Source: Kordia sp.
GTDB taxonomy: Bacteria; Bacteroidota; Bacteroidia; Flavobacteriales; Flavobacteriaceae
NCBI GenBank assembly: GCA_002733415.1
Contig: NVVR01000002.1
Span: forward strand, 1-64,000
DNA: 64,000 nucleotides
Reading direction: 5' to 3'
A model generated the notes under the pieces. The model did not search any database, had not been told where the DNA came from, and was given only the letters and a program-made list of their open reading frames with translations. The first letter of the stretch is position 1. Each line of letters starts with the position of its first letter. Below are positions 6,635 to 24,830 of this stretch, piece after piece. A program made the translations under genes and the position numbers.

Positions 6635-6637
6635 AAC

Positions 6638-8896: not shown

Positions 8897-9157
8897 AAGT
8901 AGTTAGGTTTGGGGAAATAGATAATGGAAATGATTCTATTTGTATGATTTTAAACGTGTTAATTTGTTTTTTAGTATGTGAGGTATTTAACTATATATTC
9001 GTTTACAAACGACTACAATTACTTACAACTGACAGTAAGTAGGTAACTACCGGATAAAACTAGCATCGCAATTTAACTTTGCAGAGTCGAAATATAATAA
9101 CTCGATAGTATTAACTGTTTAACGATTGCCAGTGATGGCATGTATAAAATTTAAATT

Positions 9158-9493: not shown

Positions 9494-9548
9494 GCCCACC
9501 AGTGGGATTAAAATAGGCCTATCTGAAAAGTCAAATAAATTCAATTTT

Positions 9549-9614
9549 GTCATACTGAGCTTGTCGAAGTTTTATTGGGGATCACAATACCTTAAAATAT
9601 TTCGGCAGGCTCAA
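9549..9614. repeat. REP-like hairpin element (family GTCAnnCTGAGYTTGTCGAAG), copy 1
   Basis: gtcatactgagcttgtcgaagt pairs with ttcggcaggctcaa downstream. Related copies are at 22837-22900, 54529-54550 and 55705-55797. Confidence 0.5.
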
Positions 9615-9635
9615 TATGATTAGTAAATTTACCTT

Positions 9636-10661: not shown

Positions 10662-10662
10662 T

Positions 10663-11301: not shown

Positions 11302-11310
11302 TAAAAGTAA

Positions 11311-12774
<1,464 letters not shown>

Positions 12775-12783
12775 ATAAAGATA

Positions 12784-12806
12784 ACTACGCAAAATGACTG
12801 CGTAGG
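12784..12806. promoter_or_regulatory. Palindromic motif ACTACGCA-aaatgac-TGCGTAG, perfect copy, between the rtcB paralog and the NTase gene
   Basis: An 8-bp inverted repeat with a 7-nt spacer. It could be a DNA operator or an RNA stem-loop. Confidence 0.45.
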
Positions 12807-12843
12807 TTGTTTTCATCTTTGACAGGTAATTAAAAAAGAGAAA

Positions 12844-13590
12844 ATGAAAACAGCAATATTAAATAAGTTAGCAAGCATAGAAAAGAAGAAAAATATAGAG
12901 ATACTTTTTGCTTGTGAGTCAGGAAGCAGAGCATGGGGCTTTGCTTCCCCGGATTCAGATTATGATATCCGTTTTATATACAAACATAAAACTGAGTGGT
13001 ATTTGAATTTATGGGAGAAAAAAGATACTATAGAATTTATGACCGCTGAAGATTTGGATGGATCTGGTTGGGATTTACGAAAAGCAACACTCTTATTAGC
13101 AAAGTCTAATGCCTCATTATTGGGTTGGTTGTTTTCGCCAGTAATATATAGAGCTGATGAATCTTTTTTAAAAGAAATACAAACGCTAGCAAACGAAAAC
13201 TTTAATCCAGTAGCTGGTTTTTATCACTTTCATTCTATGAGCAAGAGTTTCTTAGATAAAGTAATTGAAGAGGAAGTGAGTTTAAAGAGTTTTTTTTATG
13301 CTTTAAGAACTACGTTATGTAGTAATTGGATATTGAAAAACGGAACTATTCCTCCAGTTGTATTTGCAGAGTTGCTAGTTTTAGTAGATGCAGATATAAA
13401 GGTAGCAATAGAAGAGCTAGTGGCAATAAAAGCAACTAAAAATGAAAGCTTTCAAGCCTTAAAAAACGATACTTTATTTAACTATTTGAAAGACATGATA
13501 ACAAAAAATAACTTGAATAGAAATTCAGTTTTATTAAATAAAGCTGATGGAGAATCGTTCAATGAATTCTTTTTAAAAACAGTAGTGTGA
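12844..13590 (+). CDS. Pol-beta-superfamily nucleotidyltransferase (RlaP-like candidate), copy 1
   Basis: NTase signature GSRAWGFASPDSDYDIRFIY (GS...D.D). It lies immediately downstream of the RtcB paralog. Confidence 0.6.
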   Translation: MKTAILNKLASIEKKKNIEILFACESGSRAWGFASPDSDYDIRFIYKHKTEWYLNLWEKKDTIEFMTAEDLDGSGWDLRKATLLLAKSNASLLGWLFSPVIYRADESFLKEIQTLANENFNPVAGFYHFHSMSKSFLDKVIEEEVSLKSFFYALRTTLCSNWILKNGTIPPVVFAELLVLVDADIKVAIEELVAIKATKNESFQALKNDTLFNYLKDMITKNNLNRNSVLLNKADGESFNEFFLKTVV

Positions 13591-14657
13591 TGACTATAGC
13601 AGAATTAAAGAAATCGGGAAGCATCATATTTGAATGTATAAGCGGTAGTCGAGCATACGGACTTGACACCGCTACATCCGATACGGATATACGAGGTGTC
13701 TTTATTGCACCAAAAGAGCAGTTTTACGGATTACATTATACCGATCAAGTAAATGATGAAACCAATGATGTTGTGTATTATGAGCTTAAAAAGTTTATAG
13801 GATTGTTATTAAAAAACAACCCAAACATCATGGAGTTATTAAACATGCCAGAGGAATGTATTTTATATAAACATCCTTTGTTTGATTTAATAAAAAAGGA
13901 ATTATTTTTATCAAAACTGTGTAGAAATACGTTTGCTAATTATGCTTTTACACAAATTAAAAAGGCAAGAGGATTGAATAAAAAAATAGTGAATCCTGTT
14001 GATCAGAAAAGAAAGTCTGTAGAAGATTTTTGTTATGTAAGAACAGGGAAACAATCAGTTTTGTTAAGGGGTTTTTTAAATATGAATCAATTAAAAAGTT
14101 CCGATTGTGGTTTGGCAAAAATTACTCATATGAAAGACTGTTATAACCTCTTTCACAATGTATACTTGGACTATAACGGAATAGCTAGAAATGACGCCAA
14201 CGAAGTTTGTTTGAGTTCTATTCCTAAGGAAGAAACTCCTATAGGGTTATTGTATTTTAATGTAGATGGATACTCATCATATTGCAAGAGATACAAAGAA
14301 TATTGGTCATGGGTAGCTAAACGAAATGAAGAACGGTATAAAAGTAATATTTCACATAGTAAAAATTACGATGCTAAAAACATGATGCATACTTTTCGGT
14401 TATTGCATATGGCAAGGGAAATTGGATTAAAAGGCGTCATAAATGTGAGGCGTTCTGATCGAGATTTTCTACTAGCAATAAAAAATGCTGAGTTTGAATA
14501 TGCTGAGTTGGTTGAAAAAGCAGAAGTATTACGACAAGATTTGGATAAAATTTATGAAAGTACAGATTTAATGGAGAAACCAGATGTAGCACTAGTGGAT
14601 AAGCTATTACTGAAATTAAGAGCTATCTATTATGAACAAAGAGTAGAGAAAGACTAA
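13587..14657 (+). CDS. Pol-beta-superfamily nucleotidyltransferase, copy 2 (paralog of the upstream gene)
   Basis: GSRAYGLDTATSDTDIRGVF. Its start overlaps the upstream stop by 4 nt, consistent with translational coupling. Confidence 0.6.
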   Translation: MMTIAELKKSGSIIFECISGSRAYGLDTATSDTDIRGVFIAPKEQFYGLHYTDQVNDETNDVVYYELKKFIGLLLKNNPNIMELLNMPEECILYKHPLFDLIKKELFLSKLCRNTFANYAFTQIKKARGLNKKIVNPVDQKRKSVEDFCYVRTGKQSVLLRGFLNMNQLKSSDCGLAKITHMKDCYNLFHNVYLDYNGIARNDANEVCLSSIPKEETPIGLLYFNVDGYSSYCKRYKEYWSWVAKRNEERYKSNISHSKNYDAKNMMHTFRLLHMAREIGLKGVINVRRSDRDFLLAIKNAEFEYAELVEKAEVLRQDLDKIYESTDLMEKPDVALVDKLLLKLRAIYYEQRVEKD

Positions 14658-14732
14658 TTAGTAATTCTAACGAGCCTTTTTTCTTACTTTTGAGAATAAA
14701 GTAAAAGCATATTTCAATAAACCAAATCTGAA

Positions 14733-15446
14733 ATGACAACGAGAAACAGAGGAAAAGAAGGAAGCGACGATAAGCTTTTTGGAACTTCAAAAATGCAACA
14801 ACTGATAAAGGAGGCGTTACAGGACATGTCCTATTTATTATCTAGAGATTATGCTGATAAATCAGCTGTACAATTGGTAGGGAATCGATATCGTTTAAAT
14901 GTGAGGCAACAAAAAGCGATACGGGGTATGAGTGCCTCAGTTACTCAAGTGGAACAAAGAAAATTAAGTGAGCTATCTGTTAACCAATTAGTAGGACGGG
15001 AAATAATGATTGATGGATTTAATCTATTAATAGTATTGGAAAGTGCATTGTCAGGAGCATATTTATTTAAAGGAATGGATAATTGCTACAGAGACCTTTC
15101 CGGAGTACATGGGAGTTATAAACGAGTACAACAAACAGAAAAGGCATTGTTGTTAATAGGTGATTTTTTAAAAGAGTGTGCGGTAGGAAAAGTTACTTGG
15201 GTGTTTGACAAACCGGTTTCCAACAGTGGTCGATTAAAAACGAGAGTCAGAGAATTAGCCGAAGCACATGGATTTAATTGGGAAGTGATATTAGATAATA
15301 ATCCTGATAAACTATTAGCGGAAAGTAACAAGATTGCAATTAGTTCCGATGCTTGGATATTAGATCGCGCTAAAAGGTGGTTCAACTTAGCAGGGGATTT
15401 AATTGAAAACAAAATAGAGATTACAACTATTATAGAGAGTTATTAA
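14733..15446 (+). CDS. Hypothetical protein, possibly an NYN/PIN-like nuclease fold
   Basis: An IMIDGFNLLIVLES segment resembles the N-terminal IDG.N catalytic motif of NYN domains. This is a weak assignment. Confidence 0.3.
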   Translation: MTTRNRGKEGSDDKLFGTSKMQQLIKEALQDMSYLLSRDYADKSAVQLVGNRYRLNVRQQKAIRGMSASVTQVEQRKLSELSVNQLVGREIMIDGFNLLIVLESALSGAYLFKGMDNCYRDLSGVHGSYKRVQQTEKALLLIGDFLKECAVGKVTWVFDKPVSNSGRLKTRVRELAEAHGFNWEVILDNNPDKLLAESNKIAISSDAWILDRAKRWFNLAGDLIENKIEITTIIESY

Positions 15447-15460
15447 TAACTTTCATGTCA

Positions 15461-15602
15461 AAGTAAGAAATAGAGAACGAAAAATCGGAATTGCGATGCA
15501 TAGCATCAGGCATGTAGATTCGAAAGTGATCGTTACGAAGTAATTTCCTATTCTTTGACTTGATTTTTTTGGTTCGTTTTTTTATCAAGAAAAAAATGAA
15601 CA
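15461..15602. repeat. Non-coding ~140-bp conserved block, copy A (homologous to 20570-20712)
   Basis: About 80% identity to copy B, including cttgatttttttggttcgtttttttatcaagaaaaaaatgaa. It starts 15 nt after the stop of the upstream gene. Confidence 0.6.
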
Positions 15603-15864
15603 GATAGTTCTTGAAAGACTTAATATGATGGTTTTAATAAAATTTATTAAATAAACTAACTTTCAAGTTTTATTTAGAAAAACAACAAATAAGCACTCGA
15701 ATTTGGTGAATAGGAACAATTTGCACCATATTTGTAGTAGAATTATTAACAAAAAATAAAACGAAAACCACCTATGACGATATTTTTAAACATAAAAAGG
15801 ACGCTGAAAAGCTATTTTGATTGTAAGAAATAGGTTAATTTTCGAAAAGATATCTCTTTAAAAA

Positions 15865-15895
15865 GCGTCCAAACTAAAATTTGGACGCTTTTTTT
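15865..15895 (+). terminator. Rho-independent terminator closing non-coding module A
   Basis: gcgtccaaactaaaatttggacgc followed by 7 T. The homologous hairpin is at 21094-21121. Confidence 0.6.
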
Positions 15896-16433
15896 ATGAC
15901 TTTTTTCGAACACTATTTTACTGTTATAAAATTGGAGCTTTAAATGCTAAATACAAGCACAACAATTGGTTGTGAATTTGTTTACTATCTGTAGGAATAC
16001 GGGCAGGGATTCTAGCACCTAAAAACAGCATAACTTACTGGTAACGAGAAATATAAAGGCAGATATTTTCTTGTGTAATCCAAAAAATGAATTGACCTTT
16101 GCATCGCAGTATTACCGAATAAAACGGAACAACTAGCAAAAACTAAATTATTAATCAAACCAATTAAATATTGGAATGACGTATAAATAATTTGAATTAT
16201 TTTTTTACTTAGATGAGGCATAAAATTTAAACATAGCCTCAGTTACGGTTATATTTTATAACAATATATAAGTGAAAAAGGAGCATATTATATATGACAT
16301 TTTAATTTTTAAATGGTTTATCAACACCGAAGTACTATGACTTTATTCAATAGCTACCAATACATTCCACAAGGCCTAGGTGCTTTGTTATGTATGCTTC
16401 GGGATTTCATTCGTAAATAATATTTCCATTATA

Positions 16434-16476
16434 TATGAAAAAAAGTCCGAAGCTATAACGTTTCGGACTTTTTTCA
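16434..16476. terminator. Bidirectional terminator-like hairpin about 120 bp upstream of rtcB
   Basis: An A-run, then agtccgaagctataacgtttcggact, then a T-run. Confidence 0.55.
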
Positions 16477-16598
16477 TTCTAGGTCTATCTTGAAGAATCT
16501 CCGAGACCAAATTTAAAAGTGATTTTATACAACCATGTTCCGTAATAGGAAGAACTATCAATGCATTAACATTTGATGGAAGGATCACTTATATCATA

Positions 16599-18008
16599 AT
16601 GTATAAGAAAAATATAATGGGAAAGAAATTAAGCGGAAGAGACTTAATCAAGTTAGGTTTTCCGCAAAACAATAGTATTAATGTGACTTTAGGTCAGATT
16701 AATAGATATCAGAAAAGAAAAAAGAAAGAACAAATATTACTCGAAGCTAAGCAAGTATTACTACATCCTGAAAATTATAAGGGAGATGGTGTTTGGGGAA
16801 AAATAGCAGAAAGTCTGCTAGATCCAGTACTAGTGACGAAGCAAGTGTTAAACTCAGTACGTGCACCATTTCAAATATTTGGAGAAAATGAAATTGATGA
16901 TAAAGCCAAGTATCAATTATTTGATGCTTTAAAATTACCAGTGGCAGTTGCAGGAGCCTTAATGCCAGATGCACATGCTGGATATGGTTTGCCAATAGGT
17001 GGAGTATTAGCAACAAAAAATGCTGTAATTCCTTATGGAGTAGGAGTAGATATTGGTTGCAGAATGAGTTTAAGTATTTATCCAATACCAACATCTTATT
17101 TAAAAGGAAAGCAGCATCAACTTGCAAATATTTTATCAGAACATACCAAATTTGGAATGTATGAAACACATAAGGTAAAACATGACCATGAAATTTTTGA
17201 GCGTGAGGAATTTAAAACTATTCCTTTAGTAAAGCGATTAAAAGACAAAGCGTACAAGCAATTAGGAACTTCAGGTGGTGGAAATCATTTTGTAGAGTTT
17301 GGAGTAGTAACTATTAAGGATGAAAAGAATGAATGGGACTTACCATTAGGCGATTATGTTGGCGTATTAAGCCATAGTGGTTCTAGAGGATTAGGAGCAA
17401 ATATTGCAAAACATTATACCTATTTAGCTACTAAACAATGTCCCTTACCCAAGCACGTACAGCAGTTGGCTTGGTTGGACTTGAACACACATGACGGGCA
17501 AGAATATTGGTTGGCAATGACATTAGCGGGTGATTATGCGAAGGCATGCCATGATAATATTCATAAACGCATAGGGAAATTGTTAGGAGCAAGACCTGTA
17601 GCTACAATCGAAAACCATCACAATTTTGCTTGGAAACAAGAGGTAAACGGTGAAGAATGTATTGTGCATAGAAAGGGAGCAACTCCTGCTGAAAAGGGTG
17701 AATTGGGAATTATTCCAGGTTCTATGACAGCACCAGGATTTATTGTTCGTGGTCTGGGGAATCAAGATAGTTTAGCATCTGCATCACATGGAGCAGGACG
17801 TCTTTTTTCTAGAAGAAAATGTAAAGAGAAATTCACTAAAAGTGAAATCAAAAAGCAATTGCAAGCAAACGATGTTACGCTTATAGGAGGTGGAGTAGAT
17901 GAAGCACCTATGGCTTATAAGGATATCGAGAAGGTAATGGCGAATCAAAAAGAATTGGTTGAGGTTATTGGAACATTTACACCGAAAATAGTACGAATGG
18001 ACAAATAA
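16599..18008 (+). CDS. rtcB: RtcB-family RNA ligase, release-factor-H-coupled type
   Basis: Canonical motifs PDAHAGYGLPIGGV, VDIGCRMSL, GGGNHFVEFG, HSGSRGLG, HHNFAW and SHGAGR. It lies immediately upstream of prfH. The true start is probably MGKKLSG at about 16617. Confidence 0.85.
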   Translation: MYKKNIMGKKLSGRDLIKLGFPQNNSINVTLGQINRYQKRKKKEQILLEAKQVLLHPENYKGDGVWGKIAESLLDPVLVTKQVLNSVRAPFQIFGENEIDDKAKYQLFDALKLPVAVAGALMPDAHAGYGLPIGGVLATKNAVIPYGVGVDIGCRMSLSIYPIPTSYLKGKQHQLANILSEHTKFGMYETHKVKHDHEIFEREEFKTIPLVKRLKDKAYKQLGTSGGGNHFVEFGVVTIKDEKNEWDLPLGDYVGVLSHSGSRGLGANIAKHYTYLATKQCPLPKHVQQLAWLDLNTHDGQEYWLAMTLAGDYAKACHDNIHKRIGKLLGARPVATIENHHNFAWKQEVNGEECIVHRKGATPAEKGELGIIPGSMTAPGFIVRGLGNQDSLASASHGAGRLFSRRKCKEKFTKSEIKKQLQANDVTLIGGGVDEAPMAYKDIEKVMANQKELVEVIGTFTPKIVRMDK

Positions 18009-18030
18009 AATCAACAGTAAGAAATAAAAA

Positions 18031-18723
18031 ATGGACAAAATAATTCAAATAACGGCAGCAAGAGGACCAGCAGAATGTTGTTGGGTAGTAGCTCAAGTAC
18101 TCAAGGTTTTTATAGCAGAAGTTAAGGCTAAAGGAATTGAGTATATAATTCTGCAACGAGAAAAAGGTATTGAAAACGGTACTGTACAATCAGTGAGTAT
18201 TCAGTTATCAGGAACCGATGTGAATAGTTTTTTAACTACCTGGACTGGAACAGTACAATGGGTTGGAACATCTGCATTTCGAAAATATCACAAACGTAAA
18301 AATTGGTTTATAGGGGTGTATGAATTGGAACAATTATCCCTTTCGGAATTAAATGAAAAGGATATTAGTTTTCAAACGATGCGAAGTACTGGTCCTGGTG
18401 GACAAAATGTAAACAAAGTGAATTCAGCAGTAAGGGCTATTCATACTCCAACTGGAGTACAAGTAGTAGCAATGGATAGCCGATCACAACATCAGAATAA
18501 AAAATTAGCAATAACACGTTTAAAGGAAAAGGTAATGGAAGCCAACAGACAACAACTTAAAACCATGGAATTGAACCTATGGAAAAATCATTTGAGTTTG
18601 GAGCGTGGGAATCCGATTAGAGTTTTTAATGGGACTGATTTTAAAAAGAAAAAAGTAATTGCTTCCTATAAAAATAATCGCAATCAGTTAAAAAACGACT
18701 TGCGAAAAGAACTAAAGAATTAA
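18031..18723 (+). CDS. prfH: Peptide chain release factor H (release-factor homolog with a GGQ motif)
   Basis: STGPGGQNVNKVNSAVR GGQ motif. A short RF-like protein of 230 aa, 22 nt downstream of rtcB. Confidence 0.8.
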   Translation: MDKIIQITAARGPAECCWVVAQVLKVFIAEVKAKGIEYIILQREKGIENGTVQSVSIQLSGTDVNSFLTTWTGTVQWVGTSAFRKYHKRKNWFIGVYELEQLSLSELNEKDISFQTMRSTGPGGQNVNKVNSAVRAIHTPTGVQVVAMDSRSQHQNKKLAITRLKEKVMEANRQQLKTMELNLWKNHLSLERGNPIRVFNGTDFKKKKVIASYKNNRNQLKNDLRKELKN

Positions 18724-18727
18724 GAAA

Positions 18728-19279
18728 ATGGGAAATTTAATAGATAAATATTTATTTCAAGCGTTGGATTCCTATCCATACGAATTGGAAACAACTGTAG
18801 AGTCATTAAACTATGCGCTTTCATACGATGCTAAAAATACAACAGCTTTGTGTTTAATGGGACGTCTTCATGCGGAAATACTAAGTGATTATGAAACAGC
18901 TAAGGATTATTTCCAACAAGCGTTAGCAGAAAATATACAGGCAGTAGAGGTGTACATACATTATGCTTCGGTATTACTATGTAATGAAGATTATAAAGAG
19001 GCTGAAAAATTACTGGATTATGCATTAACAATTAAAGGCTCAGATAAAGCTGTATTGTATGCCATGCAAGCAATTATGTACGAGCATTTAACAGCGTATA
19101 AAAAAGCATTAAAGTGTTTGAAAAAAGCTAAAGTGCATGCATATAACAATTGTTATACTGAAGGGATAAAAAGAGAAGAGACACGTATTAAAGACAAGAT
19201 GCCAAAGAAAAAAAAGGCCTCTAAGAAAAAATCAAAATCCTCATCTGATAAGAAAAAGAAGAAAAATAAAAAGAAGTAA
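18728..19279 (+). CDS. TPR-like helical protein with a lysine-rich C-terminal tail
   Basis: Helical repeats. The C-terminus is KKKKASKKKSKSSSDKKKKKNKKK. It starts 4 nt after the prfH stop. Confidence 0.45.
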   Translation: MGNLIDKYLFQALDSYPYELETTVESLNYALSYDAKNTTALCLMGRLHAEILSDYETAKDYFQQALAENIQAVEVYIHYASVLLCNEDYKEAEKLLDYALTIKGSDKAVLYAMQAIMYEHLTAYKKALKCLKKAKVHAYNNCYTEGIKREETRIKDKMPKKKKASKKKSKSSSDKKKKKNKKK

Positions 19280-19280
19280 A

Positions 19281-19826
19281 ATGGGAGCACCACATAATAA
19301 GAACAGATATGGTGAAGTGTGGCCTAAAGACAGAATAACTTATACCTTAAAGGAATTAATACTTTTAAAAGATTTAGTTGTTTTATCGGGTGGTTGGGCT
19401 TGGCATTTTCTATCGCCAAAAAATCATATTGAATATAAGCATGCACATGATCATAAGGATATGGATTTATTTATTCATCCTAAAAATGTAGCAGAGGTGA
19501 TGCATATTATTCAACAGAATGGTTTTAAAAAGGTATGGACACGTTATGATAGATTACCTAGTGAAGAGAATTTTAGGCGTTATGAAAAAACTGTAGAAAC
19601 GGAGACTGGCAAAGAAATTCGTATAACAATAGATTTTTTTGTTAGTGCCTCCATACCAGTTCAGAAAGCTAAAGGTTGGACTGTCGTAGCCCCATCTTTT
19701 TTATTAGGCTTGTATACTAACATTCATTCGAGTGATAAATGTTGGGCTGTACAGGCTGCATTTAAATTATTAATGAAAAATATCAACCCATTAGACAGGA
19801 ATGAATTAATTACTATTCCTGACTAA
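19281..19826 (+). CDS. Hypothetical protein, possibly a minimal nucleotidyltransferase fold
   Basis: LSGGWAWHF...HDHKDMDLFI resembles the G[GS]...D.D NTase motif. It starts 1 nt after the upstream stop. Confidence 0.3.
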   Translation: MGAPHNKNRYGEVWPKDRITYTLKELILLKDLVVLSGGWAWHFLSPKNHIEYKHAHDHKDMDLFIHPKNVAEVMHIIQQNGFKKVWTRYDRLPSEENFRRYEKTVETETGKEIRITIDFFVSASIPVQKAKGWTVVAPSFLLGLYTNIHSSDKCWAVQAAFKLLMKNINPLDRNELITIPD

Positions 19827-19849
19827 TGCAATGAAAAACACAAAACAAC

Positions 19850-20443
19850 ATGAAAACAACAGATAAAATTATAATAATAGACCTTGAGGCAACTTGCTGG
19901 AAAGGTCCTGTTCCGCAAGGACAAGTAAACGAAATAATAGAAATAGAAATTTGTGTTCTAGACACAAAAACGGGAATCATTTCAAAAAATGAAGGGATTT
20001 TAATAAAACCTGAGCGTTCAACAGTGAGCCCTTTTTGTACCGAGTTAACCACAATTACTCAAGAATTGTTAGATCAAGAAGGAATTTCTTTCGAGCAGGC
20101 TTGTAATGAGCTACGTATACAATACAATAGTTATCAATACACATGGGCAAGTTACGGTGCTTATGATTTAAACATGTTAAAGCAACAATGTAAATTCAGA
20201 GGATTGGATTATCCAATGGCTCAAAATCATATTAATGTAAAAACATTATTTACTAAAGTAAAAGGCTTGAAACGAAAAGTAGGAATGAAAGGTGCTTTAG
20301 AGATGTTAGAAATTCCATTAGAAGGCACGCATCATAGAGGAGTAGATGATGCTAATAACATAGCGAAAATTTTAGACTGGTGTTTAAATACATCAGCTAA
20401 AGCTGAAAGTTGTTGTTTAACTAAGGAAGTGCAATTTTCATAG
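19850..20443 (+). CDS. DEDDh-family 3'-5' exonuclease (ERI-1 / KapD-like)
   Basis: Exo motif I IIIIDLEATCW, motif II YGAYDLNML, motif III THHRGVDDANNIAKIL. Confidence 0.75.
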   Translation: MKTTDKIIIIDLEATCWKGPVPQGQVNEIIEIEICVLDTKTGIISKNEGILIKPERSTVSPFCTELTTITQELLDQEGISFEQACNELRIQYNSYQYTWASYGAYDLNMLKQQCKFRGLDYPMAQNHINVKTLFTKVKGLKRKVGMKGALEMLEIPLEGTHHRGVDDANNIAKILDWCLNTSAKAESCCLTKEVQFS

Positions 20444-20471
20444 TTATGACGAATGATTTTAGAATAAAATG

Positions 20472-20506
20472 AAAGGCAACCATTATGGTTGCCTTTTTTG
20501 TTTTTA
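20472..20506 (+). terminator. Rho-independent terminator of the rtcB-prfH operon
   Basis: aggcaaccattatggttgcct followed by a T-run. Confidence 0.7.
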
Positions 20507-20569
20507 GTGAGACCTGTTCTATATGTTTTTCTGAATATTATTACTTACTTTAATTAGAGGTTGACAGAT

Positions 20570-20712
20570 TAAGAAATAATGAACGAAAAATCGAAATTGC
20601 AATGCGATAGCATTAAGTATGTAGAATTGAGAGTGAATGGTGCTTTAGCAATTTCCTATTGTCTGTCTTGATTTTTTTGTTTCGTTTTTTTATCAAGAAA
20701 AAAATGAAAAGC
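20570..20712. repeat. Non-coding ~140-bp conserved block, copy B
   Basis: Homologous to 15461-15602. It is followed by a poly-C tract. Confidence 0.6.
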
Positions 20713-21093
20713 CCCCCCCTTGATTTATAAACTATTTGTTAGATGTAAAAATAGGGATTGAAACTAATTTTATCAAAAGGTTACGACGCTATTGGTTTTT
20801 AGGGTAAAAGTAAATTACAGGTACTAATTCTCTGTGTTGTTAAAGGTATATGAACGCTATATTGTCTTATAAAGACTCTAAATAGTGCTCCATATTTGTA
20901 CTTTAGTATTAAATTATCCCATATTTGCAGTATATAAATGAATCAAAATAGAATACATATAGCACCTAAATCGCTGTTTAACCAGTGTGATTATCGTCAG
21001 GTAAGTGAATTACCTACACGAGAAGGGGCGTTTTGTGTCTATTGTTATAAGAATTGATAGTGTAAAAACTATAAAAACATATAAGAATTACAA

Positions 21094-21121
21094 GCGTCCA
21101 AGAAATTGGACGCTTTTTTTA
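21094..21121 (+). terminator. Rho-independent terminator closing non-coding module B
   Basis: gcgtccaagaaattggacgc followed by 8 T. Confidence 0.6.
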
Positions 21122-21550
21122 TGGATTTTTTTGAGTATGATTATAAAATAATAAAAGAAATAGAAAAGTAGTATTTGGACCCTAAGCAGAAGAGAGACAG
21201 TCAGTTGCATATTATCCAGTTATCGGTTGAAAAACGGACAGGAATCGCTATGTCTAAAAATAAGCGTAACTAATTGATTATCAGTAAATTAAATGTAATT
21301 TTTTCTTGTGAAATCTAAAAATAGGTTTCATCTTTGCACCGTAGTTAAGCAACAAATATGTTTATGTTTACTATCTATATAAAAAGACAAATTTTTAAAA
21401 ATATAAATATGATACGTTTTAATTCACATCCATTTTCAAGCCCCCTTTCGCAAAGCCGTCAGGATTATTGTCCGGAAGTAAATAGAAGCGTCTGTAGTAC
21501 TATACAACGAAGGAATATGTAGTTATATATATCTTCGTAAATTACTTAAA

Positions 21551-21574
21551 GGCGCCTATATAGGCGCCTTTTTT
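21551..21574 (+). terminator. Terminator-like hairpin
   Basis: ggcgcctatataggcgcc followed by a T-run. Confidence 0.5.
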
Positions 21575-21771
21575 ATGCGCTGTAATCAGAGCTTTAAAAT
21601 GAAATAAAGTTAATGCAAAAATTGGAGAGTAGGCAAATGTTGGTTTGTTGCGCTCGTTTGCTAAACGAGTTTGTGTAATAGCAATGATTGGTTCAAATGC
21701 TTGCATTCACGAAAACCCAAAAAAAATAAAAATTGCTTGAGTAATTCCGTTGCTCTCCGCAAGAATAAATA

Positions 21772-21845
21772 AGACAAGGTGGCTGAAAGGTTAAGGCAAC
21801 GGTCTGCAAAACCGTTTTTTATGAGTTCGATTCTCATCCTTGTCT
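21772..21845 (+). tRNA. tRNA-Cys (anticodon GCA)
   Basis: Acceptor gacaagg/ccttgtc. Anticodon arm acggt-cTGCAaa-accgt. T-arm atgag-ttcgatt-ctcat. Folded by hand. Confidence 0.7.
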
Positions 21846-21904
21846 CAATGATTGAAGCAGTATCAAACTTGTTTGAAAACTGTGAAAATCCAATTTGTGA
21901 TTTG

Positions 21905-21936
21905 ATGAGAACGCGCAGCAATCTCATCCTTGTCTC
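21905..21936 (+). other. tRNA-Cys 3'-end relic (T-stem plus acceptor 3' strand with an expanded 13-nt loop)
   Basis: atgag-aacgcgcagcaat-ctcatccttgtctc duplicates the 3' end of the adjacent tRNA-Cys. Confidence 0.5.
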
Positions 21937-21941
21937 GTAAT

Positions 21942-22025
21942 GGGAGTTCGCCAGAGTTGGAGAGCTGGGGCGGTCTGTAACACCGTTGTCGAAAGACTGA
22001 GTAGGTTCGATTCCTATAACTCCCA
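21942..22025 (+). tRNA. tRNA-Tyr (anticodon GTA), type II with a long variable arm
   Basis: Acceptor gggagtt/aactccc. Anticodon loop ctGTAac. Variable arm tgtcgaaagaca. T-arm tagg-ttcgatt-ccta. Confidence 0.7.
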
Positions 22026-22122
22026 CAATAAAATAAGGTTCTAGAAAGGGACCGTCAGGTTGAATATATATATAGTTACGGCTGACTATATGAATTTAGA
22101 GATGTATTTAACCTGACAAAAT

Positions 22123-22195
22123 AGTATCGTAGTTCAATGGCTAGAGCACCCGACTGTCTCTCGGGAAGCTGCGGGTTCGAATCCCGTCGGTACTG
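22123..22195 (+). tRNA. tRNA-Asp-like (anticodon GTC), with an atypical U at position 37
   Basis: Acceptor agtatcg/cggtact. D-arm gttc...gagc. Anticodon stem cccga/tcggg with loop ctGTCtc. T-arm gcggg-ttcgaat-cccgt. Confidence 0.55.
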
Positions 22196-22206
22196 CTAAC
22201 TAATTA

Positions 22207-22279
22207 CTGGGAAGATAACGATTGGCTGTTTACCCGCTTTGGATGCGGGAGGTTGCAGGTTCGAATCCTGCTTCTCAGA
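22207..22279 (+). tRNA. tRNA-Pro-like (anticodon TGG), with a non-canonical G8 and a weak D-stem
   Basis: Acceptor ctgggaa/ttctcag. Anticodon arm cccgc-ttTGGat-gcggg. T-arm gcagg-ttcgaat-cctgc. Confidence 0.5.
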
Positions 22280-22533
22280 CGATGTAACCAAAATCAAGCT
22301 TGCTTGAATTTTGGTTTGAGCTGAGACATCGCAGGATGACGTAGTCAATCCTGCTTCTCAGACGATGTGACCAAATCAAGTTATTTGAATTTGGTTTGAG
22401 CTGAGGCATTGCAGGATGACGTAGTCAATCCTGCTTCTCAGACGATGTAACCAAAATCAAGCAAGCTTGAACTTTGGTTTGAGCTGAGGCATTGCAGGAA
22501 AGACGAAGTCAGTCCTTCTTCTCAGACGAATAT
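22254..22533 (+). repeat. Tandem repeat of ~80-83 bp, about 3.3 units. Each unit is a tRNA-like minihelix (acceptor strands plus a T-stem with a 14-nt loop) followed by a perfect 13-bp hairpin.
   Basis: Units begin at about 22254, 22331, 22411 and 22494. Each contains gcagg-atgacgtagtcaat-cctgc-ttctcag-a followed by the hairpin aaccaaaatcaag...cttgaattttggtt and then ctgag(g/a)c. Confidence 0.7.
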
Positions 22534-22609
22534 GCAGGGATGGCGAAATGGTAAACGCACCTGATTTAGAATCAGGATTTTGAGAGTTCGAGTCTCTCTC
22601 TCTGTACCA
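22534..22609 (+). tRNA. Type-I (short variable loop) tRNA with anticodon TAG, identity uncertain. CCA is encoded.
   Basis: Acceptor gcaggga/tctctgt (two G-U pairs), U8, G18G19. Anticodon arm cctga-ttTAGaa-tcagg. 5-nt variable loop. T-arm gagag-ttcgagt-ctctc. Discriminator A, then CCA. Confidence 0.5.
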
Positions 22610-22611
22610 AT

Positions 22612-22683
22612 AGATTTATGGTGTAATGGATAGCACACTAGGTTACGACCCTAGGAGTATGAGTTCGAATCTTATTAAATCTA
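22612..22683 (+). tRNA. tRNA-Arg (anticodon ACG)
   Basis: Acceptor agattta/taaatct. D-arm gtgt-aatggata-gcac. Anticodon arm ctagg-ttACGac-cctag. T-arm atgag-ttcgaat-cttat. Confidence 0.7.
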
Positions 22684-22688
22684 CAAAT

Positions 22689-22759
22689 TGACTTGTGATG
22701 TAATGGTAGCATATAAGATTTTGATTCTTATTGTATAGGTTCAACTCCTGTCAGGTCAA
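22689..22759 (+). tRNA. tRNA-Gln (anticodon TTG)
   Basis: Acceptor tgacttg/caggtca. Anticodon arm taaga-ttTTGat-tctta. T-arm atagg-ttcaact-cctgt. Confidence 0.65.
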
Positions 22760-22766
22760 CTATTAA

Positions 22767-22792
22767 CTGGGAATATAACGATGTTTACCCGC
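22767..22792 (+). other. 5'-half relic of the tRNA-Pro-like gene
   Basis: ctgggaatataacgatgtttacccgctt matches 22207-22245, then diverges. Confidence 0.5.
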
Positions 22793-22836
22793 TTGCTTGA
22801 GATGTTATTAAGTAAAGCCCTATATGAAATCTAAAT

Positions 22837-22900
22837 GTCACACTGAGCTTATCGAAGTGCAATTGATAGTCAAGGTTTTATTGGTTTTCGCGAAGCTCAG
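22837..22900. repeat. REP-like hairpin element, copy 2
   Basis: gtcacactgagcttatcgaagt pairs with ttcgcgaagctcag. Confidence 0.5.
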
Positions 22901-22907
22901 ACAAAAT

Positions 22908-22980
22908 GGTGTTTTCAGCTTATTTGGTAAAGTGCTAGACTGTGAATCTAGAGAACAGGGTTCGAATCCCGAAAACACCC
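22908..22980 (+). tRNA. tRNA-His (anticodon GTG) with an encoded G-1
   Basis: Extra 5' G. Acceptor gtgtttt/aaaacac. Discriminator C. D-arm gctt-atttggta-aagt. Anticodon arm ctaga-ctGTGaa-tctag. The T-stem is imperfect. Confidence 0.6.
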
Positions 22981-22996
22981 AAAATTAAAATAACCT

Positions 22997-23023
22997 ATAC
23001 TACGTAAAATGATTGCGTAGTAG
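22997..23023. promoter_or_regulatory. Palindromic motif, copy c (actacgta-aaatgat-tgcgtagt)
   Basis: The same ACTACGCA-N7-TGCGTAGT family as at 11323 and 12784. Confidence 0.4.
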
Positions 23024-23220
23024 GGTGGGAAGTTTGTAATGTAATTAAAAGCTAATAATAAGTTTAAAGGTTTTGTGTTCTTTTAAACGTTTAAATATCA
23101 AGCTAGTCTTGTTGGGTGTTTCTGTATAGCACTATTGTATAAAGTATTGCAATGATTTTGTATGATGACTTTATATTCAACTAGATTTGGAGGTTTTAGA
23201 TTGTTTACCAAAAAATAATC

Positions 23221-23258
23221 ACACACTGTGGTCATGGGTTCGAATCCCATCCTCATTA
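23221..23258 (+). other. tRNA 3'-half relic (T-arm atggg-ttcgaat-cccat plus acceptor 3' cctcatt-a)
   Basis: There is no matching 5' acceptor strand upstream. Confidence 0.45.
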
Positions 23259-23259
23259 A

Positions 23260-23316
23260 GTTGAGGTAGTTCAGTTTGGTTAGAACAACAGCGTAGATGT
23301 CGTCGGTTCGAATCCG
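23260..23316 (+). other. Chimeric tRNA relic: acceptor 5' plus D-arm (gttc-agtttggtta-gaac) joined to a T-arm (gtcgg-ttcgaat-ccgat), with no anticodon arm
   Basis: Only 12 nt separate the D-arm from the T-arm, and the acceptor strands do not pair. Confidence 0.4.
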
Positions 23317-23342
23317 ATCTTAAACTTTGGAGAAATCCATTG

Positions 23343-23729: not shown

Positions 23730-24830
23730 ATGAAACGAGTACGAATTAATGAGGGGAAAATTGGATTGGTTTTCAAAAACGGAAACTATTTAAAAGTAAT
23801 TACCGAAGGGGTATATTGGTTAGGAATTAATCAAAGAGTGCTAATGTACAATCAGGCAACTTCTTTTGCTACACCTATAGCCTTAGAACTTTTAGTAAGA
23901 GATGAAAAATTAACGGCACTTATTGATGTTGTTGAGGTAAAAGATAATGAATTAGTACTAGTGCATGAAAATGGAATTTTTAAAACAATCTTAAAATCTG
24001 GAAGATATACCTACTGGAAAGGTTTGATAAATAGAACCTATACTCGAGTAGATTTAAGTAAAATTTATATTACGGAACAAATTGAAAAATCATTGTTTAC
24101 AAAACCTGAAATGGTGCAGTACATCAGATTATTTGAAGTGGCTGCTTTTGAAAAAGCGGTATTGATTATTGATGATGTATACACAAAAACATTAGATGGA
24201 GGAACATATCGATTTTGGAAAAATGATACCACTATAAAAATTGCGAAAGTTGATTTACGTCAGTTGCAATTAGAAATTTCAGGCCAAGAGTTATTAACCA
24301 AGGACAAGGCTGCAATCCGAATTAACTTTTATACTCAGTATAAAGTTACTACTATTGAAAAAGCCTTGTTGGAAAACAAGGATTATGAAAAGCAATTGTA
24401 CGTTTTAATGCAATTGGCATTAAGAGCTTATGTTGGGACCTATACTTTAGATGAATTGTTAGAGCGTAAAGAAAATATTGCTGCTGCAGTGTTTGAAAAT
24501 GTGAAGAATGCTGTTTCAAAATTGGGTGTATCTGTTTTAAATTGCGGTATTAGAGATGTTATCTTAACGGGTGAAATGAAAGAAATCATGAATCAGGTAT
24601 TGGTAGCTCAAAAAAAAGCACAAGCAAATGTAATTACAAGGCGAGAGGAAACAGCTGCTACTAGAAGCTTATTGAATACTGCTAAGTTAATGGAAGAGAA
24701 TAGCATGCTATTTAAGTTGAAAGAAATGGAGTATGTGGAGAAAATTTCTGATAAAATTGGAGAGATTTCAGTTTCCGGAAATGGAGGTGTGATTAAACAA
24801 TTGAGGGATATTTTTTCCGTTAATAATTAA
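23730..24830 (+). CDS. SPFH / band-7 (slipin-like) domain protein
   Basis: The C-terminal half has an SPFH-like pattern (ILTGEMKEIMNQVLVAQKKAQANVITRREETAATRSLLNTAKLMEEN). Confidence 0.55.
   Translation: MKRVRINEGKIGLVFKNGNYLKVITEGVYWLGINQRVLMYNQATSFATPIALELLVRDEKLTALIDVVEVKDNELVLVHENGIFKTILKSGRYTYWKGLINRTYTRVDLSKIYITEQIEKSLFTKPEMVQYIRLFEVAAFEKAVLIIDDVYTKTLDGGTYRFWKNDTTIKIAKVDLRQLQLEISGQELLTKDKAAIRINFYTQYKVTTIEKALLENKDYEKQLYVLMQLALRAYVGTYTLDELLERKENIAAAVFENVKNAVSKLGVSVLNCGIRDVILTGEMKEIMNQVLVAQKKAQANVITRREETAATRSLLNTAKLMEENSMLFKLKEMEYVEKISDKIGEISVSGNGGVIKQLRDIFSVNN

Follow-up and report, generated by a model that had tools for sequence, protein, structure and literature searches.

A PrfH-RtcB operon with accessory genes and a predicted leader attenuator in a modular flavobacterial RNA-damage island

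Introduction

Accessory proteins of the systems that combine RFH (PrfH) with the RNA ligase RtcB were described computationally by Burroughs & Aravind (2019; IJMS 20:1981, PMC6514570, section 2.4, Fig 4G-I), who listed a TPR protein and a 'previously uncharacterized' Polβ nucleotidyltransferase (NTase), and proposed that the former is a scaffold while the latter restores nucleotides in the manner of RlaP. RlaP adds one or two NMPs onto damaged RNA 3'-OH ends (PMC12776372). In C. gingivalis, it has been demonstrated experimentally that PrfH (CgPrfH), of the subfamily described as PrfH-CT, has a dual activity, rescuing both non-stop ribosomes and those damaged in the decoding centre, before hand-off to RtcB for ligation; the two proteins are sufficient in vitro without accessory enzymes (PMC12829566).

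We analysed a 64,000-nucleotide stretch of contig NVVR01000002.1 (Kordia sp., a marine flavobacterium), hereafter the window, in which a sequence-only reading had noted a PrfH-RtcB operon extended by three genes and had contrasted it with described prfH loci as two-gene units. That contrast is outdated, since the TPR and NTase genes of the operon are among the accessories already described (PMC6514570). The best explanation of the locus, to which we give a probability of roughly 60%, is a single transcription unit within a modular flavobacterial RNA-damage island, comprising a PrfH-RtcB core, accessory genes and leader attenuation.

Results

Five open reading frames on the + strand, at 16599-18008, 18031-18723, 18728-19279, 19281-19826 and 19850-20443, encode in order RtcB, PrfH, a lysine-rich TPR protein, a minimal Polβ NTase and an ERI-1-like DEDDh exonuclease (Exo), separated by 22, 4, 1 and 23 nt. 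An intrinsic terminator at 20471-20507 (+ strand; 12-bp stem with five G-C pairs and a 3-nt loop) closes the block, its stem spanning 20471-20497 with the T-run directly after. The co-directional genes, their exact coordinates and gaps, and the strong terminator of the sequence-only reading are thereby confirmed, and its TPR, NTase and ERI-1-like assignments were upheld in HMM, alignment and structure tests. Within the block the only other terminator-like site on the + strand is a weak 5-bp stem inside the last gene. A scan for the Bacteroidetes-type promoter motif (TTG-N19-21-nAnnTTTG) found none in 16599-20443 and only four on the + strand across 15400-21800, at 15703, 16071, 20896 and 21306. 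On sequence grounds, the five genes look like a single transcription unit. Nor is their arrangement a product of chance, since RtcB, PrfH, TPR and NTase are contiguous in approximately 70 of the 72 Bacteroidota loci, which show three differing gene orders, although part of this synteny reflects common descent and not independent selection, because many of the loci come from related Flavobacteriaceae.

The block sits in an island with the order WYL regulator, RtcB-RlaP-RlaP-DUF434, five-gene operon, tRNA array and Band-7 gene. Its upstream half (9636-15446, mixed strands; Pfam assignments) consists of a WYL/WCX regulator (9636-10661, - strand), a 212-aa gene of no assigned family (10663-11301, - strand), and, on the + strand, a second RtcB (11386-12774), two RlaP NTases (12844-13590 and 13587-14657) and a DUF434/DUF5616 gene (14733-15446); modules of this half also adjoin PrfH operons at five other loci. 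Downstream, an array of Cys, Tyr, Asp, Leu, Arg, Gln and His tRNA genes (21773-23326, + strand; ARAGORN, Rfam), with two weak tRNA-like elements besides, encodes no CCA at its 3' ends. Arrays of the same core order follow the operon in other genomes. The Band-7/SPFH gene (23730-24830, + strand; Pfam Band_7, 6.1e-26) is a recurrent neighbour of Exo elsewhere.

Upstream of the operon lies a promoter-like element (block C; 16040-16115, + strand), a degenerate copy in which a palindrome-like sequence accompanies a -33 TTG, at 16071, and a -7 nAnnTTTG. A paralogous and well-conserved copy at 21275-21350 (+ strand) precedes the tRNA array. The consensus was built from 36 sites in related loci, and the element also stands ahead of tRNA arrays at eight other loci. 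An element common to PrfH operons and tRNA arrays is apparently new; transcription of the operon would start at this Bacteroidetes-type promoter with its upstream palindrome, as before the tRNA arrays.

Between this element and rtcB, a leader ORF of 27 codons (MTLFNSYQYIPQGLGALLCMLRDFIRK, followed by a stop codon) occupies 16337-16420 (+ strand). Each of the 16 aligned loci has an ORF of 26-28 codons; a strict pattern recovers it in 24 of 72 loci, and was not matched in the Chryseobacterium, true Kordia or Dokdonia operons. Four segments could form mutually exclusive helices, and the alternatives were also examined by constrained folds. R1 (CCGAAG; 16327-16332, + strand), which immediately precedes the leader start codon, is the proposed anti-antiterminator arm and is complementary to R2 (GCTTCGGGAT; 16396-16405), which lies inside the L-R-D codons of the ORF; 96.5% of R1:R2 cells are paired, with a C:G to U:A change in Maribacter/Allomuricauda. 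R3 (AAAGTCCGAAGC), a loop, R4 (GTTTCGGAC) and T6 form an intrinsic terminator at 16442-16474 (+ strand), 125 nt before the rtcB ATG (98.4% paired), and R3 is also able to pair with R2 as an antiterminator (97.2% paired, one compensatory change). Covariation support is modest, there being one compensatory event per alternative helix, each in two closely related sequences, and the conservation of R2 could partly be a coding constraint. The best Rfam match, Thr_leader, is below threshold.

Expression of the operon is apparently triggered through a ribosome-stalling leader peptide, previously unreported, and the conserved leader ORF with terminator and antiterminator pairings upstream of rtcB is apparently new. 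The 27-codon peptide would gate read-through: a ribosome stalled early on the leader would free R2 to form the R2:R3 antiterminator, and the operon would be read; translation through to the stop codon would mask R2 and allow the R3:R4 terminator; and where the leader is not translated, R1:R2 pairing would again permit termination.

The first gene (16599-18008, + strand) encodes an RtcB-family 3'-phosphate RNA ligase (Pfam RtcB, 1.4e-83 over residues 106-465), a PrfH-linked paralogue extended at its N terminus by about 100 aa, scoring 148 bits against TIGR03073 (release_rtcB), under the cutoff of 271.8. The second (18031-18723, + strand) encodes a PrfH of the PrfH-CT subfamily (TIGR03072, 231.5 bits, cutoff 166.65), with the GGQ motif and a basic C-terminal tail. 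It matches chain 9mor_A at 1.5e-83 over residues 2-225, tail included; in the search it is labelled simply 'Peptide chain release factor H', and we take it to be CgPrfH. The roles of the core can be regarded as established, given its homology to characterised systems. When a ribosome has stalled, either because its 16S rRNA was cut at the decoding centre or because the mRNA lacks a stop codon, PrfH-CT would enter the A site and free the peptide; the subunits would dissociate, and the linked RtcB would then rejoin 2',3'-cyclic-phosphate and 5'-OH ends.

The third gene (18728-19279, + strand) encodes a small TPR protein (Pfam TPR_2, 30.7 against a threshold of 27; TPR_19, 26.3 against 25), the commonest partner across the sampled loci and present in nearly all sampled operons, including those of Maribacter and Allomuricauda, from which NTase and Exo are missing. 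Its lysine-rich tail, already remarked upon in the window, proves to be a conserved feature: across 78 orthologues the median length is 176 aa, and the last 40 residues contain 15 K/R at the median. Through this tail the protein probably anchors the system to the ribosome or to rRNA.

Beyond homology, we infer the functions of the accessory genes from sequence and context. They had been read as one accessory set, in which Exo strips damaged 3' nucleotides from rRNA, the NTase rebuilds the end and RtcB ligates it. Across 72 Bacteroidota loci carrying the NTase, in three gene orders, the three genes do not behave as one set: PrfH accompanies the NTase in 71, RtcB in 70 and the near-universal TPR gene in 70, whereas Exo is adjacent in 24. 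Outside Bacteroidota the NTase also occurs alone. A single pathway is nonetheless consistent with the tight operon structure in the window, with the near-constant company of NTase and PrfH in Bacteroidota, with the place of Exo at the operon end in two differing gene orders and, judged by eye, with a phosphoesterase-like gene between NTase and Exo in Dokdonia. We consider it unlikely: Exo is missing from 48 of the 72 operons, being encoded elsewhere in some of those genomes, its most frequent partners are tRNA arrays and Band-7 genes rather than PrfH, and the NTase, found in other phyla and in phages where there is no PrfH, is lacking from two genera with the operon. The E. coli PrfH and RtcB, reportedly (Tian et al. 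in PNAS, 2022), are enough in vitro without accessory enzymes, as are those of C. gingivalis. Moreover, RtcB requires a 3'-phosphate and could not ligate the 3'-OH that both accessory enzymes either need or produce, and the authors of the RlaP study raise the same problem for a 'trim/refill then ligate' model (PMC12776372). A logic of end trimming or CCA-like end repair is plausible, though not one specific to PrfH.

Exo (19850-20443, + strand) consists of a nuclease domain only (RNase_T, 9.7e-16, 59.2 bits), with catalytic residues D11, E13, D106, H162 and D167. Its DEDDh motifs align with human ERI1 (4.9e-18), and it scores 76.9 bits against the KapD model, under the cutoff of 169. Adjacency to the PrfH operon is confined to Aquimarina, Dokdonia, Lacinutrix and window-like lineages. 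Orthologues 74-75% identical lie on other contigs of Flavobacterium sp. J27, F. jejuense and Flavobacterium sp. TP390, whose PrfH operons lack Exo, and Kordia also has one (73-76%). That Exo is an unrelated housekeeping gene, for RNA turnover or akin to DNA proofreading, which came to follow the NTase by accident, would fit the breadth of the family in Flavobacteriia (1405 proteins, often annotated 'DNA polymerase III' or 'KapD') and the related genera to which operon adjacency is restricted. It would also fit the 10 of 41 Exo-anchored loci without PrfH (about a quarter) in which no island marker lies within 10 kb. We nevertheless hold this to be quite unlikely, given the strong, strand-specific enrichment of its surroundings. 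At least two same-strand tRNAs precede Exo in 22 of the 41 loci (54%), against tRNA arrays in 2 of 47 control PrfH loci without Exo (4%; Fisher p = 1.2e-7, or 3.3e-6 after de-duplication), and at least two opposite-strand tRNAs in none of the 41. In 13 of the 41, Band-7 is encoded on the same strand 1-5 kb upstream, as the immediate neighbour in several, and some island marker is present in 31. The recurrent neighbours, namely tRNA arrays, Band-7, RlaP and other ligases, but not PrfH, are enriched also around relatives at 35-62% identity; at one locus, downstream of 15 tRNAs, Exo ends an Rnl2-ligase-based operon that also encodes a cyclic-phosphate REC domain and a phosphoesterase. Exo has also kept its place at the operon end in Lacinutrix, where the gene order is rearranged, and in the window it follows a 23-nt gap with neither promoter motif nor terminator before it.

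From this context, Exo is part of a wider network of RNA-repair and spare-tRNA genes. It would be a separate mobile module, usually partnered by arrays of spare tRNA genes, by Band-7 and by other RNA-repair operons, that in this lineage has become attached to the 3' end of the PrfH operon, with which it is presumably co-transcribed. It probably cuts single-stranded 3' extensions back to the duplex, its substrates being perhaps the 3' trailers of tRNAs from CCA-less array genes, or the frayed ends of damaged RNA.

The NTase (19281-19826, + strand; motifs S36-G37-G38, D60-x-D62 and D118) has no match to PF10127 in Pfam, and its fold neighbours include MenT/TglT NTases, LnuA and ANT(2''). MenT/TglT enzymes act on tRNA 3' ends. 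All eight loci outside Bacteroidota have the NTase alone. Its 17 relatives on phage contigs of jumbo-phage size have RtcB within 8 kb in five cases, directly adjoining in one, and tRNA clusters in seven; PrfH is absent from all 17 loci. Since it stands alone in other phyla and near RtcB or tRNA genes on phage contigs, the NTase follows RtcB and not PrfH. Identity across phyla is unusually high (54-76% in 80 genome loci), which we read as favouring a conserved macromolecular substrate. The probable role of the enzyme is to extend shortened RNA 3'-OH ends by one or a few nucleotides, as RlaP does; alternatively, it may rebuild tRNA 3' ends.

Were it instead an antibiotic nucleotidyltransferase of Lnu/ANT type, the operon would couple ribosome rescue to inactivating a compound that targets the ribosome. 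Its weak NCBIfam matches are indeed to Lnu(P), Lnu(C) and Lnu(D), one family member has a precomputed PF10706 match, and stand-alone copies lie amid housekeeping genes in other phyla. Scores, however, fall far under every curated cutoff (20 against 300 bits), identity to LnuA and ANT(2'') is just 14%, and MenT/TglT-type enzymes match equally well; together with the phage neighbourhoods and the cross-phylum conservation, this makes the proposal decidedly improbable. That the NTase is a growth-arrest toxin of MenT/AbiEii type, preventing the charging of tRNA, with a neighbouring gene as antidote, is barely credible, as there is no adjacent AbiEi/MenA-type antitoxin, stand-alone copies have no conserved partner, a PADLOC search gave no match, and the gene sits in repair operons and phage tRNA regions.

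Discussion

In its RtcB and PrfH core, small TPR gene and non-RlaP Polβ NTase, the operon resembles the RFH-RtcB systems of Burroughs & Aravind, the main text of which (PMC6514570) has no 3'-5' exonuclease, leader attenuator, promoter shared with tRNA arrays or phage NTase homologues. The ZnR and charged-helix proteins of those systems are missing in the window; an Aquimarina locus has a 229-aa basic protein. The likeness to the C. gingivalis PrfH-CT/RtcB system (Sci Adv 2026, PMC12829566) extends to the PrfH tail, but the C. gingivalis and E. coli RtcB2-PrfH studies concern a two-protein pair, and the window has five genes in an island. The operon NTase is, like RlaP (PF10127), two genes for which share its island, an RtcB-linked template-independent enzyme, yet it is some 70 residues shorter, lacks the RlaP C-terminal region and is structurally closer to the minimal Lnu/ANT(2'')/MenT enzymes. 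Exo shares its nuclease domain, with all catalytic residues aligned, with eukaryotic ERI-1 and with B. subtilis KapD, a demonstrated 3'-exoribonuclease (PMC11736430); it has no SAP domain and falls under the KapD equivalog cutoff, and its context is one of RNA-repair islands and tRNA arrays rather than the spore crust, or 5.8S rRNA and histone mRNA.

The leader resembles attenuators of the trp/thr type and stalling sensors such as ermC and PA5471.1-armZ in having a short ORF, three mutually exclusive helices and an intrinsic terminator. Unlike these, it places R1 5' of the start codon and not within the ORF; it shows no obvious run of regulatory codons and belongs to no Rfam family.

The cyanobacterial L-array (trn operon)/rtcB regulon, reportedly a response to translational stress (Santamaría-Gómez et al. 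in NAR, 2021; TrcR in Commun Biol, 2023), belongs to another phylum and has 9-nt direct repeats where the window has a palindrome and a Bacteroidetes promoter; the flavobacterial arrays are shorter. The PrfH link and the predicted leader-peptide attenuator, known here from sequence alone, are further differences. What the two have in common is spare tRNA arrays near RNA-processing genes including rtcB, and cis-elements common to the promoters of the array and of rtcB.

Operon organization and a probable transcription unit

The genes encoding RtcB (16599-18008), PrfH (18031-18723), the TPR/lysine-rich protein (18728-19279), the minimal Polβ nucleotidyltransferase (NTase; 19281-19826) and the ERI-1-like DEDDh exonuclease (Exo; 19850-20443) all lie on the forward strand, separated by 22, 4, 1 and 23 nt. 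The ORF listing reproduced exactly the coordinates and spacing given in the sequence-only reading, and the strong terminator that it had placed 3' of the block corresponds to a 12-bp hairpin (20471-20497, +; five G-C pairs) with a T-run on its 3' side. Its by-eye protein assignments all hold when examined with Pfam and NCBIfam profiles, motifs, structure and the alignment to ERI1.

No forward-strand terminator was found inside the five-gene block except a weak 5-bp stem in the last gene. A sigma-70 consensus scan returned fewer sites than shuffled sequences, this consensus being uninformative for Bacteroidota, and we therefore used the Bacteroidetes-type motif TTG-N19-21-nAnnTTTG, which occurs four times between 15400 and 21800 (at 15703, 16071, 20896 and 21306), in every case outside the five genes. 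So far as the sequence can tell, the interior of the block gives no sign that any of its genes is transcribed apart from the others. The window also contains a Flavo-1 RNA and Por_Secre_tail proteins, and has about 31% G+C, all in line with Flavobacteriia; PADLOC recognized none of the five operon proteins as a known defence component.

RtcB and PrfH

RtcB matched its Pfam profile at 1.4e-83 (281.9 bits, residues 106-465) and has an N-terminal extension of ~100 aa. Against TIGR03073 (release_rtcB, a hypothetical-equivalog model) it scored 148.1 bits, below the cutoff of 271.8; Pfam leaves no doubt that it is an RtcB, and it adjoins prfH, but it represents a divergent flavobacterial lineage. 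PrfH scored 231.5 bits against TIGR03072, above the curated equivalog cutoff of 166.65. It is 230 aa long, carries the GGQ motif in the context ...STGPGGQNVNK... and is missing the release factor N-terminal domain, with only the C-terminal two thirds of the RF1 and RF2 models aligning to it. The protein aligned at 1.5e-83 over residues 2-225 with chain 9mor_A, a 231-aa PrfH that we take to be that of C. gingivalis (CgPrfH), and this alignment includes the basic C-terminal KK..YK..R..K tail, which places the window PrfH in the PrfH-CT subfamily. That subfamily is recognized by a basic tail reaching ~25 residues past the end of E. coli PrfH, a length of 225-250 aa and its occurrence in Flavobacteriia (PMC12829566), and the window protein has each of these features. 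PrfH-CT rescues ribosomes that are non-stop or damaged in the decoding centre, and repair of the 30S subunit by RtcB follows (Tian et al. Sci Adv 2026, PMC12829566); the experimental papers handle PrfH-RtcB as a two-protein pair (PMC12829566).

The TPR protein and the minimal nucleotidyltransferase

The TPR protein exceeds the Pfam cutoffs for TPR_2 and TPR_19, and its 78 orthologs have a median length of 176 aa and a median of 15 K/R among the last 40 residues. The sequence-only reading had regarded the three genes after prfH as additions to a two-gene unit, a view that gives way for two of them, since the main text of Burroughs & Aravind 2019 already describes accessory genes accreting around the RFH-RtcB core, among them a TPR gene, an uncharacterized non-RlaP Polβ NTase and ZnR or charged-helix proteins, and already holds the same functional idea, namely that this NTase may, like RlaP, restore nucleotides. 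An exonuclease is missing from the accessory list in that main text, to which this comparison is confined. The interval from the leader/terminator to RtcB in Aquimarina locus L001 holds a gene for a very basic 229-aa protein (6404-7093), absent from the window, that runs into the start of RtcB; the protein may be one of the ‘charged helical/RFR’ proteins of Burroughs & Aravind.

The window NTase has the Polβ core motifs hG[GS] and [DE]x[DE] with a third acidic residue and adjoins RFH-RtcB, and is thus an RFH-associated, non-RlaP Polβ NTase. HMM libraries returned only sub-threshold matches, and it is motifs and structure that carry the assignment. The RlaP profile PF10127 did not match at 19281-19826 while giving 236 and 96.5 bits for two upstream genes, and the protein stays below the curated NCBIfam cutoffs for lincosamide and aminoglycoside NTases (best match Lnu(P), 20.2 bits where 300 are required), its likeness to Lnu/ANT(2'') being in fold only, at 14% identity. 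The family is sharply defined, comprising 545 proteins from 252 species genomes plus copies in jumbo phages.

We surveyed 80 NTase-anchored genome loci, 72 of them from Bacteroidota, by scanning 10-kb flanks with the island proteins. In Bacteroidota, PrfH was a neighbour in 71/72 loci, RtcB in 70/72, TPR in 70/72 and Exo in 24/72. Aquimarina and Dokdonia have the gene order RtcB-PrfH-TPR-NTase(-Exo), Kordia has RtcB-TPR-PrfH-NTase, and Flavobacterium, Chryseobacterium and Tamlana have RtcB-NTase-PrfH-TPR; this linkage, outlasting rearrangement, argues for function. The NTase is not always found with PrfH, given that all eight loci from outside Bacteroidota (in Parabeggiatoa, Planctomycetota, Myxococcales and Trueperaceae) carry it alone amid unrelated genes. 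Maribacter and Allomuricauda have RtcB-PrfH-TPR operons in which the NTase is missing, and there a class-II PolyA_pol/CCA-adding-type NTase lies directly 3' of the island's first RtcB (L161, 4081-5469; L162, 4473-5852), which suggests a functional substitute for the absent enzyme. Seventeen viral relatives (35-56% identity) were found on IMG/VR contigs L164-L180, mostly 188-618 kb and so jumbo-phage-sized; RtcB occurs within 8 kb in five of these (adjacent in L179) and tRNA clusters nearby in seven, and PrfH in none. The solitary and phage copies, together with the Maribacter and Allomuricauda operons, indicate that the NTase tracks RtcB and tRNA repair, not PrfH itself.

The exonuclease and its neighbourhoods

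Exo belongs to the DEDDh family, matching RNase_T (PF00929) at 9.7e-16 with 59.2 bits against a cutoff of 24. It aligned with human ERI1 at 4.9e-18, residues D11, E13, D106, H162 and D167 falling in the DEDDh motifs under the catalytic-residue assignment that we assume for the human enzyme. Its score against the KapD equivalog NF005838 was 76.9 bits, below the cutoff of 169, and it is without the N-terminal SAP domain of ERI-1, for which a 197-aa protein with a nuclease domain starting at residue 5 has no room.

Exo adjoins the operon in Aquimarina (16/16), Dokdonia (6/6), Lacinutrix (1/1) and one of three uncultured Flavobacteriaceae, and is not adjacent in Chryseobacterium (0/30), Kordia (0/8) or Flavobacterium (0/6). 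Orthologs of 74-75% identity are found on contigs other than that of the PrfH operon in Flavobacterium sp. J27, F. jejuense and Flavobacterium sp. TP390, and others of 70-79% identity in Kordia, Winogradskyella, Olleya, Nonlabens and Tenacibaculum. Among 80 Exo-anchored metagenome loci, adjacency of PrfH was confined to the closest relatives, with at least 77% identity, which rules out an exonuclease specific to PrfH.

Of those loci, 41 were at least 12 kb long and without PrfH. At least two tRNAs on the same strand as Exo were present in 22/41 and at least four in 16/41, and two or more on the opposite strand in 0/41. Band-7 was found 1-5 kb upstream on the same strand in 13/41, directly adjacent in several; RlaP and an RtcB of ~51% identity each occurred in 7/41, and 31/41 had at least one marker of the RNA-repair island. 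By comparison, tRNA arrays accompany only 2/47 Exo-less PrfH operons (Fisher's exact p = 1.2e-7; after de-duplication to 27 clusters, 3.3e-6). Locus L140 is a different RNA-repair operon closed by the same Exo family, and reads, from 2310 to 10552, 15 tRNAs, RNaseH-like (PF04308), cyclic-phosphate REC (cREC_REC), DinB_2, Rnl2-type ligase, MBL, metallophosphoesterase, a second RNase_T exonuclease and Exo; in L156 a relative of 35% identity is set within 25 tRNA genes. Such partners outside PrfH operons (tRNA arrays, Band-7, RlaP and ligases) indicate that Exo is a mobile part of RNA-repair and spare-tRNA neighbourhoods, which has docked at the 3' end of the PrfH operon in the lineage of the window. 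Lacinutrix keeps Exo at the operon end although its gene order is rearranged, and the docking is therefore probably functional.

Some Aquimarina and Dokdonia operons have one or two extra same-strand genes between NTase and Exo (L007, 10603-11559; L021, 10700-12229), encoding a protein of ~320 aa (318-320) that by eye is Ntn-hydrolase-like and, in Dokdonia, also a 186-aa protein that by eye is metallophosphoesterase-like.

The RNA-repair island and tRNA array

Upstream of the operon, the island comprises a divergent WYL/WCX regulator, a 212-aa unknown gene (10663-11301, -), another RtcB, a pair of RlaP genes (12866-14653) and DUF434/DUF5616. Neither that unknown gene nor the RlaP pair occurs in the relative L082, which is 86-96% identical elsewhere, indicating that island modules are gained and lost one by one.

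The tRNA array downstream (21773-23326, +) contains Cys, Tyr, Asp, Leu, Arg, Gln and His tRNAs and two degenerate tRNA-like elements, and is followed by Band-7; CCA is not encoded. The core order Cys-Tyr-Asp ... Leu-Arg-Gln-His recurs in arrays of 4-18 tRNAs downstream of the PrfH operon in loci L010, L024, L054, L061, L063, L082, L083 and L092, and array content is very dynamic, even in comparison with a 92%-identical relative (L082). Between tRNA-Asp and tRNA-Leu, at 22227-22529, three to four tandem units of ~83 nt resemble decayed tRNA 3' halves (…GGTTCGAATCCTGCTTCTCA…), at about the position of a tRNA-Pro in L082, and are probably remnants of array turnover. A candidate Y RNA at 23205-23312 was rejected, its YrlA-like Rfam match reaching 33.8 bits against a gathering threshold of 69 (E 2e-4) and overlapping a weak tRNA-like element at 23260-23326; this element is probably a degenerate tRNA.

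A putative promoter element common to operon and array

Two paralogous non-coding regions of ~650-780 bp, one ahead of rtcB (15456-16110) and the other ahead of the tRNA array (20562-21345), bracket the five-gene block and share blocks A, B and C at 76-91% identity. Block C (16040-16115 and 21275-21350) combines the palindrome cTGATnaTCAg, for which the divergent WYL/WCX protein is the first candidate binder, with a Bacteroidetes-type promoter motif composed of a -33 TTG and, ~20 nt on, CATnTTTGCA. We found 36 sites in related loci; in L061, L063, L082, L010, L054 and L094 the element lies upstream of both the PrfH operon and the tRNA array of the same genome. The copy at the window's own rtcB is degenerate. 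Together these sites point to a putative promoter element common to PrfH operons and tRNA arrays.

Block A, of ~150 nt and 82% identity, contains internal hairpins. Each paralogous region also has a second promoter-like motif (15703 and 20896), followed about 150-200 nt later by a common terminator hairpin, AAGCGTCCAA...TTGGACGCTTTTTTT; the spans 15703-15893 and 20896-21122 may be a pair of small RNA genes.

A candidate leader-peptide attenuator

Between block C and rtcB, a segment of ~150 nt is conserved in Aquimarina, Flavobacterium, Lacinutrix, Tamlana, Maribacter and Allomuricauda. It holds a leader ORF (16337-16420, +; MTLFNSYQYIPQGLGALLCMLRDFIRK), 26-28 codons long in 16/16 aligned loci, and an intrinsic terminator at 16442-16474 (+). 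Four RNA segments, R1 to R4, could form alternative helices. R2 (GCTTCGGGAT, the L-R-D codons of the ORF) is complementary to R3, the 5' arm of the terminator, and also to R1 (CCGAAG), directly 5' of the leader ATG. Across the alignment, 98.4% of cells are paired in the R3:R4 terminator (with U:A to C:G in Flavobacterium), 97.2% in the R2:R3 antiterminator (A:U to G:C in Flavobacterium, involving the same R3 base) and 96.5% in the R1:R2 anti-antiterminator (C:G to U:A in Maribacter and Allomuricauda), these compensatory changes representing one independent event only per helix; sliding the register brings pairing down to 10-61%. In constrained folding, the free leader adopted R1:R2 with the terminator, masking R1 and codons 1-12 allowed R2:R3 to form, and masking R2, as by a ribosome on the stop codon, restored the terminator.

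The segment thus has the short conserved ORF, intrinsic terminator and alternative helices with common segments that are expected of a candidate ribosome-stalling attenuator upstream of rtcB. A strict form of the pattern, searched within 1600 nt upstream, was present in 24 of 72 testable loci, none of them from Chryseobacterium, true Kordia or Dokdonia. The best Rfam match to the region was Thr_leader, below threshold, and our literature search found no report of such an element.

Leader peptides in the window and its orthologs keep Tyr7 and often Asn5 and Asp9. Codons for Tyr, Asn and Asp are read by tRNAs of the queuosine family (Tyr, Asn, Asp, His). These tRNAs are prominent in the neighbouring arrays and are attacked by colicin E5-type nucleases; this may be coincidence.

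Discussion

PrfH-RtcB is, to our knowledge, the only system that both rescues and repairs ribosomes damaged by ribotoxins. In the sampled flavobacterial PrfH-CT operons it is nearly always joined by the TPR/poly-lysine protein and usually by a dedicated NTase, and we know of no experimental examination of either to date. By homology to the systems studied experimentally, PrfH-CT acts on damaged or non-stop ribosomes to release the peptide, and RtcB reseals 16S rRNA; the TPR/poly-lysine protein would be an adaptor binding the ribosome or rRNA. The NTase would extend RNA 3'-OH ends with nucleotides, and Exo would cut back single-stranded 3' ends; MenT-type relatives of the NTase act on tRNA 3' ends, and ERI-1 and RNase T halt at duplexes.

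The observations of the sequence-only reading are confirmed, and its interpretation, in which trimming by Exo and tailing by the NTase precede ligation, is supported only in part. RlaP does add nucleotides to RNA 3'-OH ends (PMC12776372). The chemistry is the problem, in that NTase and Exo use or leave a 3'-OH and RtcB requires a 3'-phosphate, a mismatch which the RlaP authors themselves stress (PMC12776372). Because of it, a step on rRNA before ligation seems to us less likely than a parallel branch that matures or rebuilds the 3' ends of tRNAs, a preference that draws also on the CCA-less array tRNAs, the Maribacter CCA-type NTase and the phosphoesterases beside Exo (in L140 and, by eye, L021). 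Speculative though it is, this alternative, with both enzymes serving tRNA 3' ends and not the ligation junction, is one that the gene neighbourhoods themselves suggest.

Taken jointly, these features could describe a translation-damage regulon of Flavobacteriia, a reading to which we give a tentative probability of roughly 0.3. The rtcB-prfH operon and a spare array of CCA-less tRNAs would both be transcribed from the palindrome-bearing promoter; as an extra, the leader peptide would gate the rtcB-prfH arm only, sensing stalls early in elongation, whether caused by damaged decoding centres or by depletion of tRNAs through anticodon nucleases. NTase and Exo, with a phosphoesterase in some genomes, would make up a branch that trims and rebuilds tRNA 3' ends independently of ligase and complements the re-ligation of rRNA and anticodon loops by RtcB. 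The NTase of jumbo phages would be a captured copy of the same enzyme, serving to protect the phages' own tRNAs. We know of induction of PrfH-RtcB-type operons only in RtcR systems; if the leader-peptide attenuator is real, the operon would be a direct sensor of ribosome malfunction.

Three features appear to be unreported: the association of Exo with tRNA arrays and Band-7, the putative common promoter element and the candidate attenuator. The operon in the window is a lineage-specific form of the extended RFH-RtcB system already described: the TPR protein and NTase are known accessories, and the docking of Exo appears to be new. In cyanobacteria, long tRNA arrays adjoin rtcB and are co-regulated with it (PMC8421152), and the ‘L-array’ idea of a stress response is carried over from them to Bacteroidota by the statistical link that joins Exo, Band-7 and spare tRNA arrays.
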